Origin: Candidatus Spongiisociaceae bacterium
GTDB lineage: Bacteria > Actinomycetota > Acidimicrobiia > Spongiisociales > Spongiisociaceae
Length of the DNA: 64,000 nt
Assembly (NCBI GenBank): GCA_965262915.1
Contig: OZ253564.1
Coordinates: 2,112,001 to 2,176,000, forward strand
Direction of reading: 5' to 3'
In this document: positions 1,880 to 58,512 of the stretch, in pieces
How positions within the stretch are numbered: the first letter of the stretch is position 1
Layout: every line of letters starts with the position of its first letter
Position numbers and translations under genes: made by a program
The notes under the pieces: model-generated
What the model was told of the DNA's origin: nothing
Seen by the model: only the letters and a program-made list of their open reading frames with translations
Database searches by the model: none

Positions 1880-3067
1880 ATGGCTGAGCCCCGTATCGCC
1901 GAGCCGATCCTGCATGTGGACATGGATGCGTTCTTCGTTGAGGTCGAGCGCCTCGACGATCCGGGCCTGCGCGGTCGCCCGGTCGTGGTGGGGGGCGAAG
2001 GCCGCCGTGGCGTGGTCGCCTCCGCTTCGTACGAGGCCAGGGCGTCGGGGGTTCACTCGGCCATGCCCATGAGCAGGGCCCGCCGGATGTGTCCGGGTCT
2101 GGTCGTCGTTGCTTCCCGCCACGAACGTTACCGGGAGGTTTCCGAGAGGGTCCTCTCGATCTTCGGCGACTTCACGCCGTTGGTCGAGGGATTGTCCATG
2201 GACGAGGCCTTCCTCGATGTCCGGGGCCTCCGCAGGCACTACCGAGATACCCGGGCGGTGGCGGAGGCCATCCGGGCTCGTATCAGGAACCACTTGAGGT
2301 TGCCGGCTTCGGTAGGGGCCGCCACTTCCCTCTACGTGGCGAAGATGGCCTCCGCCCGCGCCAAACCCGACGGGGTATTCATCGTCACGGCCGGCGCCGA
2401 GATGGCCTTTCTGCACGGTCTGGCCACCGAGGAGCTGTGGGGGGTCGGAAAGGCCACCAGGCGCCGGCTCTCCGATCTGGGGATCGAGACGGTGCGGGAT
2501 CTCGCCCGAGTTCCCGCATCGCTGCTACGCCAGCACCTGGGTGAGGCGGTGGGTAGGCACCTCCACCGCCTGGCGAACGGGATCGATGAGCGGATCGTCA
2601 CCCCTCACGGTTCAGCCAGATCTATATCGGTGGAGCAGACCTACGGGGATGACATCGCGGGGGAAGAAGTTCTGCGTGCCGAGTTGCTCCACCATTCCGA
2701 CCAGGTTGCCTGGCGGCTCAGGCGGGCGAGCCTGGCTGGACGTACGGTGTCGATCAAGCTCCGGTACCCCGATTTCACCACCTTTACCCGCTCCGAGACC
2801 CTGAAGGCCGGCACCGCCGTGACCCGGGATATCTACCAGGCGTGCTGTCGGCTGCTGGAGCGGGCTGGGGTAGGGGATCGTCCGGTCCGGCTTCTGGGTG
2901 TGGCCGTTAGCGGTTTGCAACCCGACGACGCGCCCCGGCAGTTGTTGATCGATCGGGAGGCGCGCTGGGAGGACCTGGCGGAAGCGGTCGATGGCGTGAG
3001 GGCCAGGTTCGGTCGGAGGGCGGTGGAACCCGCCCGGCTCCGGACCCCCAAGTCCGCCGGTGGTTGA
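1880..3067 (+). CDS. dinB: DNA polymerase IV (Y family)
   Basis: ILHVDMDAFF, SYEAR, SMDEAFLD, KPDG motifs. Confidence 0.95.
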   Translation: MAEPRIAEPILHVDMDAFFVEVERLDDPGLRGRPVVVGGEGRRGVVASASYEARASGVHSAMPMSRARRMCPGLVVVASRHERYREVSERVLSIFGDFTPLVEGLSMDEAFLDVRGLRRHYRDTRAVAEAIRARIRNHLRLPASVGAATSLYVAKMASARAKPDGVFIVTAGAEMAFLHGLATEELWGVGKATRRRLSDLGIETVRDLARVPASLLRQHLGEAVGRHLHRLANGIDERIVTPHGSARSISVEQTYGDDIAGEEVLRAELLHHSDQVAWRLRRASLAGRTVSIKLRYPDFTTFTRSETLKAGTAVTRDIYQACCRLLERAGVGDRPVRLLGVAVSGLQPDDAPRQLLIDREARWEDLAEAVDGVRARFGRRAVEPARLRTPKSAGG

Positions 3068-3283
3068 CGGTTGACCTCTCGGCCCAGGCCACCGGCCGCT
3101 TTCGATGCTGTCTACGCTTAGTCGTGGAAGGGCGCCGAAAAACGCGTAAGTGGTTGGCCCGTCGTCCGCTGATGGGGCGTTCTGTCATCGACCGTCGGGC
3201 CGTTGGGGGTTTCCCCACCACCCCCCTAGCCGGTAGGGCGACGTATACTATGGGCGGGCGCACACAAAGTTGGAGCGGCTTCT

Positions 3284-3649
3284 ATGCCATTGAATGAGCG
3301 GGAGCAGCAGATCCTTGAGGAGATCGAGAGGCAGTTCCGCGTCGAGGATCCGGAGTTCACGCGCAAGACATCATCATCCCTTTCTCGTCTCGACCAGCGG
3401 AACCCCCGCGTCCCCGTAGCCGGGGCGGCGGTCGGGATGCTGTTGCTCGCCACTTACTGGGTCGGTACGGTGTGGCCCTCGGTCCCGACGGCGCTGACGG
3501 TTGTGTTGGCGCTGGCTGGGTTCGGCCTCATGGTCCTCTCGGTGAGTGCGCTGGTTCAGGCACGGCGTGGTTCCAGCCAGGATTCGGGCGGTGCTTCCGG
3601 GGATTTCTTGTCGAGCGCGAGAAACTCCCGCTGGCCGTTCCGTCGCTGA
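3284..3649 (+). CDS. DUF3040 family membrane protein
   Basis: MPLNEREQQILEEIERQF..EDP N-terminus plus two TM segments; usual actinobacterial position between dinB and mraZ. Confidence 0.8.
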   Translation: MPLNEREQQILEEIERQFRVEDPEFTRKTSSSLSRLDQRNPRVPVAGAAVGMLLLATYWVGTVWPSVPTALTVVLALAGFGLMVLSVSALVQARRGSSQDSGGASGDFLSSARNSRWPFRR

Positions 3650-3816
3650 GGGCTCGCCTCCGGTAGGATTACGCCGACTCTGAGGCGGAGGGCTCAACCA
3701 TAACGTTCGGTCCTCCCCACGCGGTTGCATGCAACCGTCCGGCGCGGGAGTGCACAACGGCACGAAGAACAAACCGGGGTGCTCCGGCGTACCCCACTGG
3801 TCCGAGGGAGACAGTC

Positions 3817-4308
3817 TTGCAAGAAGGATTCACCGCCGACCAGGCATCCCGGCTGACGGGATGCACCCAGTCCCAACTCCGATACTGGGACAAAGTTCGA
3901 CTGGTCCAGCCATCGATACAGCGAACGGGAGGTCGTGCCGGCGTCCGACGAATCTATTCATTCCGGGATCTGGTGATACTTCGAGTTGTGAGGAGCCTGA
4001 AGGACAACGGAATGTCACTGCAGCGGATCCGGCGTGCATGGAATTACCTGCGCCGCAACGGCGTAGACCCCCGTGGGGTGAAGCTGGTGACCGACGGGGT
4101 TTCAATCTTCCGGATCGCGCACGACGATGACGAATTACTCGATGCGCTCCGTGAAGGTCAGTTGGCGTTCTTCGTGGCGTTGGACGAGATCACCCAGAGC
4201 GTCGAGGAGGATGTCAGCCTGTTCGAATTGGATCGTGACCGGTTCCTTACCTTCCTGCGCGGGAGCCGGGAGGACGTTCGGCGCCGAGTCGAGGGTGGCA
4301 CGGGTTAG
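3817..4308 (+). CDS. MerR-family regulator, Rv1830/McdR-like
   Basis: QLRYWD..LVQPS..RRIYSFRDL..GMSLQRIR MerR HTH; LVTDG..LREGQ C-terminal pattern recalls the Rv1830 family. Confidence 0.8.
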   Translation: MQEGFTADQASRLTGCTQSQLRYWDKVRLVQPSIQRTGGRAGVRRIYSFRDLVILRVVRSLKDNGMSLQRIRRAWNYLRRNGVDPRGVKLVTDGVSIFRIAHDDDELLDALREGQLAFFVALDEITQSVEEDVSLFELDRDRFLTFLRGSREDVRRRVEGGTG

Positions 4309-4429
4309 CCGGTGGTCCGTCTGTAAACCAACTTGCCGTGCCCTGCAGCCGCGACGCTATTTCACAAGTAGACCGTCGCTGGTTGGTGGCTGACGGGAGG
4401 GGGAGCAACTCGGTGGTCGTTGAAGGGCT

Positions 4430-23592: not shown

Positions 23593-24132
23593 GTGCGCCT
23601 GAGTTCGCACGAAGTCGAAGGGGTCAAGTTCGCGGTCACCCTCCGCGGTTACGCAGAGGACGAGGTCGACGCCCTCCTTGACCTCGTCGTGGCCACCATC
23701 GGTGAGTACGAGGATCGTGACGCCAAGGCCTGCAGTGAGATTGAACGGCTCCGGTCCGACATCGACGAATGCCGCAAAGCGCGGCTCCTGGAGATCAGAG
23801 GGCCGAGTTCGGACCGTGATGCCCACGTTGACGTCGAGAACCGGGTGGCAGGCATGCTCGAGGAAGCGGTCAGGACCTCGGAACGGGTGGTCGAGGAGGC
23901 CTTGGAGGCGGGCGAGCACATCCTCGACCAGATCCGAACGGCGTTGGAGCCCTCCTTGCCGGGGGCGGAGCGCGGTCGACCCGACCAGCATGCCGAGGTG
24001 GACCAGAACATCCCCCCGGTCGGTGCCGAGGGCGGGCTCGAGGGGATCATGGAGAGAGATCCGCAGCCCGGACCGTCCGGCCTTGCCTCAGGGCCTCTCG
24101 GACCCGAAGGCCTTTTCGATCGCCACTCGTAG
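23593..24132 (+). CDS. divIVA: DivIVA-domain protein
   Basis: F..TLRGYAEDEVDALLD N-terminal motif plus coiled coil; follows yggT. Confidence 0.75.
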   Translation: MRLSSHEVEGVKFAVTLRGYAEDEVDALLDLVVATIGEYEDRDAKACSEIERLRSDIDECRKARLLEIRGPSSDRDAHVDVENRVAGMLEEAVRTSERVVEEALEAGEHILDQIRTALEPSLPGAERGRPDQHAEVDQNIPPVGAEGGLEGIMERDPQPGPSGLASGPLGPEGLFDRHS

Positions 24133-27100
24133 GGCGCCGCCACCGATCTTGTAGACGGTGCCCGAGGTCGCCGGCCCGGGGGTGAGCGAGGCGGCCAGTA
24201 TCTCTCCGGCTACGAACCCGGCGTGGCGCACGATGGCGGTCCGGATATCGTGGTCGTCGGTGTGATAGCTGACCTTGATCCGGTCGCTGACCGCCAACCC
24301 CATGTCACGCCGGGTTCGCTGGATCCGGGACACCACCTCCCGAGCCCGACCCTCCGCCGCCAAGTCATCGCTCAGCGCGGTGTCCAACGCTACCGAGAGC
24401 GCTCCGTCCGAAGCCACCACCATCCCCGGACGGGGTCGGCGGGTTATCACCACGTCATCGGTGGTGAGCCGATGGTCGCCGATCACGATCCCACCGGTCT
24501 CGACGAGGATCGACACCTGCGATCCGGGAAGCGAAGCCAGAGCAGCCGCCACCGCTTTCACTTCGGCCCCGAGGCGGGGGCCGAGCCGCCTGAAGTTCGC
24601 CTTGGCACGTAATTCGACCACCGACTGCTCGTCCTCGGAGGTCTCCACGTTCTTGACGTTGAGTTCCTCGGCGATAATCCGACGGTGGCGATCGACTGCT
24701 CGCGCCAGATCCGGGTCACGGCTGACCACGGTCAGGCGGGACAGGGGTTGGCGAACCCCTACCGCGTTGTCGGACCTCAGGAATCGCCCCAGCGTGACCA
24801 CTTTTCGGGCGACCTCCATCGACTTCTCGAGGTCCTCGTCGATCATCTCGGCGTCGACCGTCGGGTAGTCGGTGTGATGAACACTGGTTGCGTCCGGCAC
24901 CAAGCCCCCGTGTAGCTCCTCGGTGATGAAGGGGAGCACCGGCGCCAGGAGACGGCTGAACACCACCAGCACCTCGTAAAGAGTGGCGAACGCCGCCCGC
25001 TTGTCCTGCTCGTGACCTTCCCGGCTTCTCCAGAACCGGCGGCGGGATCTCCGCACGTACCAGTTCGTGAGGTCGTTGACGAACCCAAGGGCGGGGCTGA
25101 CCACTGCGTACAGGTAGTAGCCCTCCATCAGCCGGTTGGTCTGTCCTATCAGTGACTGGAGGACGCTGAGGATCCAGCGGTCGATCTCGGGCCGCTCGGC
25201 GACCGGGGGCGCTCCCCGCAAGTCCTCGAACCCGATCCCGTCCGCTTCCGCATAGGTGGTGAAGAACGAGTAGGCGTTCCACAATGGGAGGATCACGGTT
25301 CGGACCACATCCCGCACTCCCGCCTCCGAGAACCGGAGTGGCTCGGCCCTCAGCACCGGCGAGTCGATCAGATAGGCGCGCACCGCGTCCCCTCCGTAGC
25401 TGTCCAGCATCAGGGAGGGCTCCGGGTAGTTCTTGAGCCGCTTGGACATCTTGCGCCCGTCCTCGGCCAGGATCATTCCGTTCACCACGCAGTTCTGGAA
25501 CGCCACGTCGTCGAACAGGGCGGTTGCCAGGACGTGGAGGGTGTAGAACCAGCCTCGCGTCTGATCGAGACCTTCGGCTATGAAGTCGGCGGGAAACCTG
25601 GCTGGGAACCGGTCTTCGTTCTCGAAGGGGTAGTGAAGCTGGGCGTAGGGCATCGAGCCCGATTCGAACCAGCAGTCGAGGACTTCGGGAACCCGGACCA
25701 TGACACCCGCTCCACGATCGGTCCCGCCCACCGAGCACGACGAGCAGGGATAGGTGATCTCGTCGACCACGTGCTTGTGGAGGTCATCGAGCCACACTCC
25801 CGAGTGTTCTTCGAGTTCCCTACGGCTGCCGATGCACTCCTGATGACCGCAGGTGTCGCACTCCCATACAGGAATGCAGCTTCCCCAGAACCGGTTGCGG
25901 GAGACCGCCCAATCCCGGGCATCCTCCAGCCAGTTACCGAAGCGGTTGGCGCCCACCCGCTCCGGTACCCAATGGATCGACCCGTTGAGTTCGACCATGC
26001 GGTCGCGTATGGCTTCGACCTTGACGAACCAGGTGGGGATGGCCTTGTAGATGAGCGGCTGGTCGGTGCGGTAGCAAAAGGGGTAGGCGTGGAGGATCCG
26101 CTCGCTCTTCATCAGGACTCCGGATCGGCGGAGGAGCCCGATGATCGTGCTCTCGGCCTCGTGGACGTGGAGACCGGCGAGTTCCGGGATGGCATCGGTG
26201 AACCTGGCCTCGAGGTTGACCGGGTCCACCAGCAGGTCCATACCCTGCACCTGCATGGCGTAGAGGTCCTCCTCGCCGTAGGCCGGTGCCATGTGGACCA
26301 GTCCGGTTCCCTCGTCGGTCTTGACGGCCGGGCTAGGGATCACGCGGAAGCCGCCCCGATCCTGTAGGTCCTCGAAGTAGTCCAGAGGGGGCCGGTAGAC
26401 GACACCCAGCAGGTCACGACCCGTCGTTACGGCTACCGGCCGGCGCGGTTCGCCGAAGACCTCCTCGACCCTTGAGGATGCTACCCAGTAGCGGGCTCCA
26501 CCCTCCTCCACCGCCACGTACTCGACATCCTCGCCAACCGCCACCACCAGGTTTCCGGGAAGGGTCCAGGGGGTGGTGGTCCATATGGTGAGGTAGTCCC
26601 CGGGCCGCGCCGGCCCGGCGTCCTCCGGGACCTCGAGCACCTCGAGACGGAGGGTAACGGCCGGGTCGTCGACGTCCCGGTAGCCGCCCAGGCTGACCTC
26701 GAAGTTGGACAGGGTGGTTCCGGCCGCCCAGGAATAGGGCAGGACCTTGAAGGCCCGGTAGACGAGGCCCCTGTCCCACAGCGAACGGAATACCCACCAG
26801 ACGCTCTCCATGAACTCGGGGTCCATCGTCTTGTAGTCGTTGGCGAAATCCACCCAGCGTCCGATCTTCCGGGTGATGTCCTCCCAATCCGCGGTCGTGA
26901 CCTCGACCATCCTGCGGCAGGCCTGGTTGAACTCGACCACACCGAGTTCCTCGATCTGCCGGGGACCGGAGATGCCCAGACGTTGCTCGACCTCCATCTC
27001 GACCGGGAGGCCGTGGGTGTCCCACCCGAACCGCCGCTCGACCCGGTGACCCCGCATGGTCCAGTAGCGCGGCACGATGTCCTTGATTATCCCGGCCAGT

Positions 27101-27312
27101 ATGTGGCCGTAATGCGGGCTTCCCGAGGCGAACGGGGGACCGTCGTAGAAGGTGTACTCCCGATCTGCGGGGCGCATCTCGATCGAGCGACGGAAGGCGT
27201 CGGTCTCGTCCCATCTTTTCAGGACGCGCGCGTCGAGGGCGGGGAGGTCGAGCTTGGGGGCGACCCGGCGGAAGTCGGTGGTCGGTCTCGAGTCCGGATC
27301 GGCTCCGGGCAT
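24088..27312 (-). CDS. ileS: Isoleucine-tRNA ligase (type 2)
   Basis: FYDGPP, HYGH, GWDTHGLP, WTTTPWTLP, GLDQTRGWFY, KMSKR; no C-terminal Zn finger. Confidence 0.97.
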   Translation of the reverse strand: MPGADPDSRPTTDFRRVAPKLDLPALDARVLKRWDETDAFRRSIEMRPADREYTFYDGPPFASGSPHYGHILAGIIKDIVPRYWTMRGHRVERRFGWDTHGLPVEMEVEQRLGISGPRQIEELGVVEFNQACRRMVEVTTADWEDITRKIGRWVDFANDYKTMDPEFMESVWWVFRSLWDRGLVYRAFKVLPYSWAAGTTLSNFEVSLGGYRDVDDPAVTLRLEVLEVPEDAGPARPGDYLTIWTTTPWTLPGNLVVAVGEDVEYVAVEEGGARYWVASSRVEEVFGEPRRPVAVTTGRDLLGVVYRPPLDYFEDLQDRGGFRVIPSPAVKTDEGTGLVHMAPAYGEEDLYAMQVQGMDLLVDPVNLEARFTDAIPELAGLHVHEAESTIIGLLRRSGVLMKSERILHAYPFCYRTDQPLIYKAIPTWFVKVEAIRDRMVELNGSIHWVPERVGANRFGNWLEDARDWAVSRNRFWGSCIPVWECDTCGHQECIGSRRELEEHSGVWLDDLHKHVVDEITYPCSSCSVGGTDRGAGVMVRVPEVLDCWFESGSMPYAQLHYPFENEDRFPARFPADFIAEGLDQTRGWFYTLHVLATALFDDVAFQNCVVNGMILAEDGRKMSKRLKNYPEPSLMLDSYGGDAVRAYLIDSPVLRAEPLRFSEAGVRDVVRTVILPLWNAYSFFTTYAEADGIGFEDLRGAPPVAERPEIDRWILSVLQSLIGQTNRLMEGYYLYAVVSPALGFVNDLTNWYVRRSRRRFWRSREGHEQDKRAAFATLYEVLVVFSRLLAPVLPFITEELHGGLVPDATSVHHTDYPTVDAEMIDEDLEKSMEVARKVVTLGRFLRSDNAVGVRQPLSRLTVVSRDPDLARAVDRHRRIIAEELNVKNVETSEDEQSVVELRAKANFRRLGPRLGAEVKAVAAALASLPGSQVSILVETGGIVIGDHRLTTDDVVITRRPRPGMVVASDGALSVALDTALSDDLAAEGRAREVVSRIQRTRRDMGLAVSDRIKVSYHTDDHDIRTAIVRHAGFVAGEILAASLTPGPATSGTVYKIGGGALRVAIEKAFGSERP

Positions 27313-27550
27313 GGCTCCTCGGGGGTAGGCGGCAATGGCGCCGGCCCGTGGCCGGCAGTGGGGGATGGTACTAGGAGGGTGGTCAAGAACCCCTGCCGAC
27401 CTTCTGGTCGATGGCAGAATGCCAGGTCAGCGGACGACGGGCCAACCATCTACCCGTCTCGGGGAACCTTCCTGGTGTCCTGATCCGTGAATCCGTCCCG
27501 GATACCCGGGAATGAACCGTCCATCCCACCCGGCAGGCCTGAGGCGGCCG

Positions 27551-27760
27551 AGAACGCGAAAAACACCGGACGAGGCCCCTCCCGACGGGCCCTCCCCCAA
27601 CCGCCACCTCCTCGGCTCCGGCCGCGTTCCTCCCTCCCCGAGAGGGTCGGCTTCGACAACATGATCCCTGCCCCGGTCCGGTCGGTACCGGATACGGACC
27701 GGTGGTGTTTGCGGTTACCTACCAGTATGCAACGGGACTGTGACACGGTCAACCCCCTTG
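27551..27760 (-). ncRNA. Candidate structured sRNA with own promoter, copy A
   Basis: TTGACC-17bp-CATACT (27752-27724), then about 170 nt sharing ordered conserved blocks with 58295-58512. Confidence 0.55.
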
Positions 27761-28074
27761 TGGCAGCGCGGTCGGTCCAGCGGGGGTTCTGGGGGCGGTT
27801 CGGCGTGGCCATCGTTCACCGACGCGGGTCCTGAACACAGCGAACGAGAGACTCGGGACACCAGTAGTCCGTCTGCGAGATGGCGGTGCGGCTCGCGCCG
27901 ACGGCGGCTTCCTCGTCTGGTCCGTCGACGGGGCGGCCGGTACGGACGCGAGGGATCCGGGCGCCCGGTCGGGCCGGACGGCACCATGACCGAGAATCAT
28001 CTCGAGCGCGCTTCCCGGCGGGCTCGCGGTAGCCTGCGATCGTATCGGGGTAGCAGACGGAAGGGGATTGGGGC

Positions 28075-39268: not shown

Positions 39269-40499
39269 TCAAGTCGGTGATGTGGCCGGTTCGTGGGTTA
39301 GGAGCCAGGTCTGGTATTGGCTGGCGAGTTGGTGGTTGTGGTCTCGGCCGCGTTCGAGTGCGGAGATGCGGCTGGGGTGGGTTCCGAGCTGTTGGGCGGC
39401 CTGGGTGACGGTGATGTTGGCGTGTTGACGTCGGCGGCGGAGCCGGGCGCAGTTCGGGGTTGGTGGCGGGTTGGTCAGCAGTCGGTAGATCTGTGGGGCG
39501 ATGTGCCGCTTGAGGCAGCGGATGATCTCTTTTCGGTTCTTTCCTTCCCCCTGGCGCCGTGCCACGTATTGGTTGGTGGCTGCGTCGTGGCGTATCCGGG
39601 TGGTAGCGCATCGGCCAGAGCGCGTTGTTGGCTTGGCGGTTACCTCCCCGGTTGAGACGATGCCGGATGGTCTGTCCCGATGATGCCTGGACGGGGCTGG
39701 CGCCACACAGCGCCGCGAAGGACCGTTCTGATTTCATCCGCTGGGGGTTGTCGCCGGCTGCGACTAGCAGGGCGGCTGCTGTGTCAGGGCCCACACCTTT
39801 GGCGGCTAACAGAGCCGGGTTAGCCTCGGCGCAGAGGCGACGGATCTCGATCTTGAGTTCTGCGATTTCTGTGTCGAGGGCTTGGTATCGGCGGGCCAGG
39901 TAGCGTAGAGCCATCTTCGCGTACGCCGCAGTGGTCTGTGCTTGGCCGGGACGCCAGCGGGCACAGACCCGAACCCGGGCCTTGAGCTTGAGACCTCTGA
40001 GCTGGCGTTTTACCTGTTCAGGTGCGGTAACGGTCACAGAATGTATCTGGTTAGCGGCCTGGGTGCGGGCCTTGGTAGCCGAGCGGCGGGCCACCAACAA
40101 CATCCGTATGCACTCAACGGGGCCGTCACCAGATTTGGGAACTGCGGTAGCTTGCCCCGAGGCCGCTGCCCGAGCTGCCGCCTCGGCGTCGACACTGTCG
40201 GTCTTGCCGCCCCGCTGGCGGCGTAGCTGCCGGTTCGGCCGGTTCACTTCTACCACCTCGATGCCCGCCGCCATCAGATAGCGGGCTAGGCCGGCGCCGT
40301 AGCTGCCGGTGCCCTCCACTCCTACCCGGAGCAGGTGCCCGTGGGTTCCGAACCACCTGGTCATCTGCTCATATCCGACCGGATCAGCCCCGAACGGAGC
40401 GGTTCCCAGCACTCGACCGGCGTTGTCGACCACCGCCGCAACATGGGTATCACGATGGGTATCAACCCCACCGAACACAACCCGACCATCTTCTTCCAT
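39269..40499 (-). pseudogene. IS110 DEDD recombinase with C-terminal HTH; frameshift at about 39610-39615
   Basis: GVDTH, GVEGTG, KTDSVDA, PVQASSG, GNRQANNAL; continues in a shifted frame as EGK.RKEIIRCLKRHIA plus HTH. Confidence 0.9.
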
Positions 40500-58077: not shown

Positions 58078-58294
58078 CGTCGGTGCTCCCGTATCGGATA
58101 GAGCCCGCCGGATACTACCGACATGCCGACCGTCGATTTCGTTGTGGATGCACAGTCGGCGAGCAACCGGCCTTGACCCGTGCGGATGGCCCGCGACCGG
58201 GAGCGAGCAAGCCTTACGAACCGGTTCGCCCGCGGATCTATGTCCTCAGAACCTACCCGGGTAGGTGGAAAGCCGGCTCGCGAAAACTTTCCTG

Positions 58295-58512
58295 CGCGAG
58301 GGGATTGAACCTGTCACACCGGTGTTGCACCATGAGTGTTACCAAACACCCGCGCGGTCTCGAACCGGACGTCATTCGGCCGCCCGATGGGTCATCGATG
58401 TCGGAACCCGGTCGCCCAGGACGGGTAGGGGAGAACGCGCTCCGATCCCAGGCAAGGTGGTGGAGGGGGAGGGCCCGGTGGAAAGAACTCTGCGGGCGGT
58501 TTTCGCGGTCTT
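58295..58512 (+). ncRNA. Candidate structured sRNA with own promoter, copy B
   Basis: TTGAAC-17bp-CACCAT (58305-58333), then about 170 nt homologous to the reverse complement of 27551-27760. Confidence 0.55.

Follow-up and report, generated by a model that had tools for sequence, protein, structure and literature searches.

Introduction

Promoter-bearing transposable elements of the miniature inverted-repeat type (MITEs), and small RNAs (sRNAs) derived from them, are already known in bacteria, namely Correia in Neisseria and QMITE1 and QMITE2 in Coxiella burnetii, to judge from the relevant parts of PMC10969869 and PMC5896051. QMITE1 and QMITE2 are the source of the sRNAs CbsR3, CbsR13 and CbsR16 and, in the sections that deal with them (PMC5896051; PMC10969869), are non-autonomous repeats of ~150–400 bp with sigma-70 promoters and ~50 copies per genome; one of these two repeats is also a target of the IS110/IS1111 family of insertion sequences (IS). 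Here we describe a repeat family that resembles them in these respects and is represented by two copies, A and B, in a stretch of 64,000 nt from Candidatus Spongiisociaceae bacterium (contig OZ253564.1, positions 2,112,001 to 2,176,000), hereafter called the window. Unlike what those sections report of the QMITEs, the part conserved here, over three genera, is a promoter–RNA–terminator unit and not the transposon ends; the unit has a covariation-supported fold with a palindromic loop, its transcript being a prediction; and it is found both as cargo of IS630 MITEs and free-standing.

Other described systems share single traits with this family. Correia and other promoter-bearing MITEs are likewise intergenic and abundant, with terminal inverted repeats, TA-type targets and strong internal promoters, according to the corresponding part of PMC10969869; Correia promoters fire outward into neighbouring genes, whereas the units described here mostly face away from them and end in their own hairpin and U-run. 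Palindromic kissing-loop elements display a self-complementary hexamer in a hairpin loop, and paired substitutions make it differ from lineage to lineage. The RNAs concerned, those of retroviruses and the natural homodimers and oligomers covered in part of PMC12990946, are encoded by single-copy genes or by viral genomes, whereas here an RNA of ~170 nt would come from dozens of copies on mobile DNA and its dimer is a proposal. The ssr9 genes of Pseudomonas putida, with the IS110-family element ISPpu9, are a multicopy sRNA gene of which some copies are IS-attached and others free (PMC12288879, in the portion on this gene); the present family differs in its link to IS630, its far higher copy number, and the absence of any sequence or model likeness to the IS110 ends of its genome. 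What is new is a conserved whole transcription unit with a covariation-supported fold, common to three genera of sponge-associated Acidimicrobiia, present in 20 to more than 110 copies per genome, carrying a loop palindrome that evolves by paired substitution, and occurring both on its own and inside IS630 MITEs. A literature search found no description of the family.

Two copies and a family

Copy A lies on the minus strand. Its promoter-like site (27724..27752) is made up of TTGACC at 27752-27747, a 17-nt spacer with TGTCACA, and CATACT at 27729-27724, and its predicted RNA (27550..27719) runs from just past the -10 hexamer to CGCGTTCTC beyond a T-run at 27563-27559. Copy B, on the plus strand, is a unit of the kind we call B-type, placed at 58277..58512 by an alignment of 27 B-type copies with their flanks. 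It opens with the end repeat CTCGCGAAAAC (58277-58287), which faces GGTTTTCGCGGTC at 58498-58510, and continues with a promoter-like site at 58305..58333, where TTGAAC (58305-58310) and CACCAT (58328-58333) are again separated by a 17-nt spacer with TGTCACA. The predicted RNA (58338-58512) has the 3' end GGTTTTCGCGGTCT. Within it, ACGCG at 58435..58439 could pair with the CGCG that follows the T-run (helix P6), and the first nine letters of GGTGGTGGAGGGGGAGGGCCC at 58456..58476 supply the 3' strand of the closing helix P1; the remainder of that segment is the most conserved block of the family.

Direct comparison of the two copies by BLAST is borderline (expectation value, E, of 9.9e-4 over 90 nt). 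When an nhmmer profile is started with nothing but copy A, it retrieves copy B with E 2.5e-48 and 60 other places besides, and chance can thus be dismissed as the source of the likeness. The whole genome (5.05 Mb in one contig, 64% G+C) holds 62 profile matches, two of them in the window, and 56 span more than 190 of the 279 profile positions. Subfamily A comprises 15 copies including copy A, ~395–400 bp long and 80–93% alike in an all-against-all comparison; subfamily C comprises four, of the same length and 91–99% alike. Both are young groups, and there are a few intermediates besides. The 27 B-type copies, including copy B, are 70–83% alike pairwise and have a common core of only ~230 bp.

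An earlier note on the window, made from its letters alone, had proposed a twin pair of loci for a multicopy RNA of about 170 nt under structural selection. The unit size, a conserved promoter of its own and compensatory change in the helices bear out this proposal in part; the pair itself has given way to a family of 62 matches in this genome and hundreds across relatives. The ordered blocks named in that note (TTGAMC, TGTCACA, GTTGCA, CAAACACC, GAACGCG, GGTGGYGG, GGGGGAGGGCCCG and TTTTCGCG) are all found in both copies, the -35/17-nt/-10 layout can be read directly from the hexamers of each, and the hairpins of differing sequence at equivalent positions are real in both. It had also seen no shared reading frame, and the spacings between anchors do fall in all classes modulo 3. 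Nor had it been able to match a known RNA family, and Rfam covariance-model scans agree in giving no family-level match: Rfam 15 has 0 matches over the whole window at gathering score, only noise for the two copies at E <=10 (MIR1883, tRNA-Sec and Six3os1, 12.8–16.7 bits), and 0 matches at E <=1 for 14 diverse members from three genera, the families not matched including T-box, 6C, Ms1, 6S, ydaO, HEARO and raiA.

To follow the family into relatives we used R1, a covariance model built from B-type RNAs. RNAalifold on MAFFT alignments yielded structure fragments only, because the variable helices were misaligned; the structure of R1 was hence written by hand and the sequences refitted with the model. 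R1 scores copy B (L047) at 173.2 bits and copy A (L021) at 62.3 bits (E 2e-17). The family is present in 23 of 29 genomes of the same bacterial family, with matches in 7/7 genomes of genus g1, 3/3 of g4 and 12/12 of g7, and R1 finds no match in the six genomes of g2, g3, g5 and g6 (completeness 72–96%). Positive genomes have from 13 to at least 95 matches, and G015, of 3.0 Mb, has 111. Public named genomes were scanned for the G-rich motif, and 80 of the 120 reported loci were scored with R1. Thirty-five of these match at E <=0.001: 28, above 35 bits, belong to metagenome-assembled genomes titled Acidimicrobiia, Acidimicrobiaceae, Candidatus Spongiisociaceae or Spongiisocius, or to 'bacterium' bins, and the seven weaker ones (16–24 bits; Streptomyces, Polyangiaceae and others) are short matches to the motif itself. 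The family has so far been found only in sponge-associated Acidimicrobiia.

Two groups of copies depart from this picture in their own ways. Four divergent long variants (c759371m, c603892m, c3025220m and c215362p; L073-L076) measure 233–241 nt, with an extra insert of ~60 nt between the P2 region and the G-rich block, and were excluded from the model and the counts. In several g7 species, one copy (L135, L136, L138, L164) sits at the same locus beside the same upstream gene, which is evidence for long-standing vertical inheritance of some copies; its -35 is degenerate, and it carries the word TTTTTTCGCGTTCTCGGGG on its 5' side, in direct orientation.

Anatomy of a unit

A unit of ~230 bp is built from a near-consensus sigma-70-type promoter, a multi-helix RNA of ~165–175 nt, a G-rich block, a weak hairpin and TTTTTCGCG; B-type units open with the 5' end word CTCGCGAAAAC. 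The promoter region reads GGGGG TTGAC/A; a 17-nt spacer, in which TGTCACA is always found, separates this from the -10, (C/T)A(T/C)(A/G)NT. We compared 129 distinct copies belonging to three genera. The TGTC anchor is present in 118, and in these the -35 letters T, T, G and A are kept in 88, 95, 96 and 78 copies; the A of the -10 is kept in 108 of 116. The predicted RNA starts ~5 nt past the -10 with (A/G)CC(A/G) AAA CACC. There follow hairpin P2, of 7–11 bp with a loop of 7–14 nt, hairpin P3, with GGGAUCA in its loop, and P4, a two-part hairpin of very variable sequence. After P4 come ACGCG and the conserved linker CUCCGANCCCAGG, and then GGUGGYGG, which pairs back to the 5' end of the RNA as helix P1 and so encloses P2, P3 and P4. 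On its 3' side stand GGGGGNGGGCCC and a variable stretch of ~22 nt, usually a weak hairpin, and the unit closes with a U-run and CGCG(A/U)(U/C)CU.

Two of these words are specific to the family, since 43 of the 47 genome occurrences of GGGGGNGGGCCC and 20 of the 22 of the end word TTTTCGCGTTCT lie inside copies; plain TTTTCGCG is as frequent as base composition alone would make it. B-type copies, although only 70–83% alike, still keep the same blocks, including the -35, the -10 and the fixed spacer, which is unlike decaying transposon copies. By the rough gene calls of this analysis, the next gene downstream lies on the opposite strand in 43 of the 62 copies, a poor fit to a leader or a promoter donor; the bias fits a free-standing unit with read-through selected against.

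The end word occurs in either orientation: some copies of genus g4 (L189, L097 and others in G018/G010) have GAGAACGCGAAAAT at their end where TTTTCGCGTTCTC is usual, the one being the reverse complement of the other.

Covariation supports a multi-helix fold

The fold was assessed on 100 sequences from three genera aligned to R1. Standard pairs make up 81.2% of cells, against 69.0% when partners are shuffled; both sides change in 24 of 28 pairs; cells with double changes number 361 against 151 expected; and the covariation score is 0.297, compared with 0.132 in shuffles (0/500) and at most 0.064 when partners are slid by 1–3 columns. On all five measures, standard pairing among them, none of the 500 shuffles reaches the observed value. 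Covariation therefore supports the multi-helix fold.

Helix P1 joins segments ~120 nt apart, and its pair 8:220, which is A-U in 39 sequences and G-C in 38, is the strongest single case of covariation. Since the 100-sequence alignment had been fitted to the structure, P1 was also tallied on raw sequences with simple anchors and no model. In 113 parsed copies G:C stands at the inner pair 55 times and A:T 28 times, the other 30 being discordant, and the outer pair is A:T in 46, G:T in 28, G:C in 21 and A:C in 10. Double changes occur in all nine pairs of P2 and all five of P3. P4, folded alone, pairs in most copies with stems that differ from one to another (CCCUC/GAGGG, CCCGCC/GGCGGG). A further helix, P6, would pair the internal (G/A)ACGCG with CGCG(A/U)YCU past the U-run; 78.1% of its cells are paired across the 100 sequences, many as G-U, and the internal GAACGCG covaries with CGCGTTC at the 3' end of the unit. 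P6 crosses P1, so it would be a pseudoknot, an alternative fold or an end repeat at the level of DNA.

A palindromic word in the loop of P2

The apical loop of P2 holds a self-complementary word of six letters. In copy A it is GGTACC (27684..27689, minus strand), and in copy B it is GACGTC (58368..58373, plus strand), within an apical loop of 10 nt. The words picked in the 129 copies are GACGTC (64), GGTACC (19), GGCGCC (7), GCCGGC (6), GTCGAC (5) and GGGCCC (2), with other palindromes in the remaining copies that have a word; four A-type copies were scored as ACCGGT though GGTACC is also present. Thirteen copies lack a palindrome altogether or have one that is not flanked by a stem of 3 bp or more; most of them are a single substitution off. 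Counted over the P2 window, a palindromic hexamer is found in 122 of the 129 RNAs, against ~44% expected from the background rate. The word changes by paired substitution: its positions 1 and 6 are G-C in 88 of 88 sequences; positions 2 and 5 are A-U in 68, G-U in 8, G-C in 7, C-G in 3 and otherwise in 2; and positions 3 and 4 are C-G in 81, U-A in 4, U-G in 2 and otherwise in 1. In G015, near-identical copies within one genome carry four different words.

Several features bear on what the palindrome is for. First, its third and fourth letters are adjacent and so cannot pair within one hairpin. Second, the axis of the word is one nucleotide off that of the stem (loop ccg-GACGUC-a), and the word is therefore not an extension of the stem. 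Third, a single DNA-binding protein could not have all five words as its site. The simplest and most likely reading, taken from the sequences, is loop-to-loop pairing of two RNA molecules, a kissing dimer. The dimerisation initiation site of retroviruses is such a palindromic kissing loop. Pairing of this kind is also known from natural RNA homodimers and oligomers, which include OLE, ROOL, GOLLD and HYER1, as given in the part of PMC12990946 that deals with them.

IS630 carriers and empty sites

Copy A is carried by an IS630-type MITE of subfamily A, 387 bp long (27475..27861, minus strand), whose limits come from the end-to-end alignment of 15 copies; its terminal inverted repeats are GTGTCCCGAGTC at 27861-27850 and GGATCAGGACAC at 27486-27475. 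In subfamilies A and C, TAGTGTCCYGARTC stands at one end and its inverted copy at the other. The same repeats also bound twelve elements of exactly 1176 bp, with C-TA-G on both sides, that encode a 364-aa IS630-family transposase (NF033545, 268.5 bits against a cut-off of 100; Pfam DDE_3 and HTH_32). The terminal repeats of this element are perfect over 14 bp, for instance at C1:481213-482388. IS630 duplicates TA within CTAG. Over their first ~30 and last ~35 nt the MITEs are similar to the ends of the 1176-bp element, and intact MITE copies, like all 12 copies of the IS, are flanked by C-TA-G on both sides; the flanks of copy A are degenerate (CTGG and CCAG). Judging from these shared ends and targets, the 1176-bp element likely moves subfamilies A and C.

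The B-type copies are different. None of the 27 aligned, copy B included, has IS630 repeats; their ends CTCGCGAAAAC and GTTTTTCGCGAYCTG / GTTTTTCGCGA form an inverted repeat of ~11 bp that is kept in ~50–70% of them, and the same end word is found in other orientations in other genera. The earlier note, which had counted a MITE as refuting its RNA, had seen no terminal inverted repeats. Both points now read otherwise: copy A is cargo of a MITE derived from IS630, with repeats at 27861 and 27475, which for this copy is the refuting case that the note had named, copy B has its short end repeats, and the repeats of both copies fall outside the spans then delimited.

Comparison with relatives reveals sites at which the element is absent. 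Downstream of copy A, 238 nt away and on the same strand, lies ileS (24088..27312, minus strand), encoding isoleucyl-tRNA synthetase (Pfam tRNA-synt_1, Anticodon_1 and DUF5915). In G007, G002 and G004 the same two genes that border copy A are 110–161 nt apart, against 694 nt here, and lack the insertion; the sequence CTAG/TACCAT just upstream of ileS, which is the right junction of copy A, is uninterrupted in G007 and G002. Copy B sits between a Fic-domain gene and an aldehyde dehydrogenase gene. In G001, which lacks the element at this place, BLAST coordinates put 73 nt between the two genes, compared with 499 nt in the window; because the sequences to either side of the element also differ, neither an exact boundary nor a target duplication can be read there. 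Across the family, the neighbours are unrelated housekeeping and metabolic genes. Neither a transposase nor any other recurrent gene was found next to the copies, only generic families such as short-chain dehydrogenases/reductases and ABC transporters.

A second, unrelated and degenerate MITE of ~104 bp (27371..27474, no strand assigned), with the ends CTAGGAGGGTGG and ACCACCCTCCTAG, adjoins the copy-A MITE at CTAG and has ~59 BLAST matches genome-wide. Members of this small family (ends CTAGGAGGGTGGT and ACCACCCTCCTAG) lie at CTAG sites, often beside or between copies of IS630 and IS630 MITEs.

Interpretation and alternative explanations

On our reading, which we give a probability of about 0.6, every member is a mobile gene, complete in itself, whose product is a structured non-coding RNA; this RNA probably forms dimers by way of the P2 loop, and IS630 spreads some of the lineages on MITE carriers. 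The family is new and mobile, and probably transcribed. Each unit would be a non-autonomous mobile element and at the same time a transcription unit with a strong promoter of the housekeeping type. Its RNA of ~165–175 nt would close its 5' end onto GGUGGYGG through P1, enclose P2 to P4, and finish with a G-rich tail, a weak hairpin and a U-run; the P2 loop words of two such molecules would then pair to give the kissing dimer. The units themselves spread as DNA, with subfamilies A and C inside MITEs that the 1176-bp IS630 could move in trans to CTAG/TA sites. The B-type units, with only their ~11-bp end repeats, are older.

The chief rival is a selfish DNA repeat of the MITE or repetitive extragenic palindromic (REP) kind, whose blocks serve transposition or DNA recognition, whose likeness to a promoter is incidental, and from which no functional RNA comes. 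We hold it to be improbable, though well ahead of the other alternatives. The copy number, dispersal and insertion polymorphism of the family are what it predicts, as are the IS630 terminal repeats on subfamilies A and C, and the use of family copies as IS110 landing sites in G015 recalls REP-type repeats. For a MITE the ends alone would suffice; in this family it is the interior that three genera conserve, while the ends vary by subfamily. The G:C to A:T switches of P1, at positions ~120 nt apart, have no known explanation at the DNA level, most copies retain the -35 and the -10 at their fixed distance, and the five loop palindromes would require more than one DNA-binding protein.

Several observations weigh against an RNA gene, and the first two of them also favour that rival. 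Folding energy shows no stability signal: compared with dinucleotide shuffles (52 copies, 30 shuffles each), the mean z is +0.78 on the sense strand, which is the more stable of the two in 44 of the 52 copies, and +0.11 on the antisense. The excess of G·U that is the classical signature of the RNA strand is absent, non-standard cells being G·U in 139 cases and A·C in 156 (by helix, 36 against 31 in P1, 42 against 45 in P2 and 40 against 18 in P3); this counts against the RNA but is not decisive, since many copies would each be under weak constraint. The fitting of the 100-sequence alignment to the model's structure favours that structure. B-type copies alone, in a plain MAFFT alignment, lend the fold weak support: they are 79.5% paired against 78.3% in shuffles, 10 of 500 of which are as high, and their covariation score is 0.116 against 0.097 (3/500). 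A terminator-like hairpin (dG <=-8, gap of at most 3 nt to the U-run) is found in only 69 of 120 parsed copies, with a mean dG of -15.0 for the 3' hairpin against -13.4 for shuffles, and the conserved CGCG past the U-run can pair with the internal ACGCG, so the 3' end of the RNA is uncertain. The data show the size of the family, its conserved anatomy and covariation, its link to IS630, its insertion polymorphism and its confinement to one lineage; transcription, with the start and end of the RNA, its dimerisation and any cellular role, is what we infer. Sequence words of the copy-B region occur in only one RNA run (metatranscriptome X20) and one possible RNA run (X19); they are assembled contigs on the aldehyde dehydrogenase and Fic genes only, at a depth of 2–3, and uninformative on the element. 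DNA runs show extra depth and loose ends over it, as expected of a repeat.

A more ambitious version of the RNA-gene reading, which we regard as unlikely, makes the RNA the working part: made from dozens of insulated promoters and self-dimerising, it would form an RNA-only or RNA–protein particle, or would aid the copying of the B-type unit itself. Were this true, the loop palindromes would define self-recognition groups, much as loop changes do in plasmid incompatibility groups.

Less probable again is a regulatory repeat in the manner of Correia, which would supply neighbouring genes with promoters, terminators or hairpins for RNase processing. The part of PMC10969869 concerned documents MITEs, among them Correia, QMITE1 and MITEAba12, whose sigma-70-type promoters act on neighbours, and copy A does stand upstream of ileS on its strand. 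Most copies have their downstream gene on the opposite strand, however, the unit ends in a hairpin and U-run of its own, and the neighbours have nothing in common, with the ileS genes of congeners doing without the element.

A guide or bridge-type RNA for an IS110-family recombinase, whose internal ACGCG and 3' tail would pair with the DNA ends of the unit, is very unlikely. The idea draws on the 51 matches in the genome, of several types, to the IS110 'RNA-guided transposase' model, on one IS110 type that begins with CTGCGCGAAAAC and so resembles the B-type 5' end, and on the covariation of GAACGCG with the 3' CGCGTTC. As a bridge or seek RNA of IS110 the family fails: six genomes with 13–75 family matches (G003, G004, G017, G019, G023 and G041) are without any IS110 match, and the family is missing from four genera that do have IS110. 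R1 has no match on the non-coding ends of IS110 (<=11.5 bits), and none of the IS110 places listed for G000 lies within ~4.8 kb of a family copy, the coordinates being compared by eye. In G015, moreover, IS110 treats the family as a target and not as a partner. Four IS110 copies are inserted there at one point of family copies, immediately 5' of GGTGGYGGTGGGGG (L350-L353, C1 near 1073400, 1461600, 1269900 and 1031600), and weak matches to the family's 5' half lie on the far side of two of them. These insertions explain the 'short' matches of ~90 nt in that genome and make the family a specific landing site; REP-like repeats serve other IS110/IS1111 elements in the same way, according to the section of PMC5896051 on them.

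Further IS110 features were noted in passing. One match lies inside the window, at ~39618-40472 on the minus strand, and the end of the G015 IS110 at its junction resembles the displaced 5' strand of helix P1. Two inverted 1483-bp copies, 100% identical, flank an ISL3-family transposase gene (G000:C1:541931-546205; L344:132-1614 and 2924-4406), an arrangement like that of a composite transposon. At L347, L348 and L349 (G000:C1 near 67889, 689277 and 3670472), solo junctions of AACCCACG with TTTTCGCGCAG stand in a repeat of ~60 nt and join the last 8 nt of an IS110 right end to the first 11 nt of a left end; these may be unoccupied target sites or excision scars.

Least credible is a cis-acting leader of the riboswitch or T-box kind, or a small protein gene: the ileS gene class often has T-box leaders and copy A precedes ileS, and A-type copies have AGGAGGTG followed by TTG or GTG, yet the leader is rejected on the lack of any T-box or other Rfam match, the element-free ileS of congeners and the orientation of most copies away from the next gene, and coding is rejected because ATG is not conserved and anchor spacings shift by 1–2 nt in every class modulo 3.

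Significance

For annotation, the family accounts for ~60 intergenic stretches that would otherwise pass as 'gene-free', and the covariance model can be used to mask or label the copies. It also marks preferred landing sites of the IS110 family in a lineage of uncultured sponge symbionts. The spread of an RNA gene as cargo of IS630 MITEs is raised as a question by subfamilies A and C, as is the identity of whatever moved the older B-type units. The loop of P2 raises the further question whether a bacterial RNA dimerises by a palindromic kissing loop while paired substitutions change its word. If transcribed, these units, at 20 to more than 110 copies with promoters in genomes of 2.3–5 Mb, would count among the structured-RNA gene families with the highest copy numbers seen so far in bacteria.

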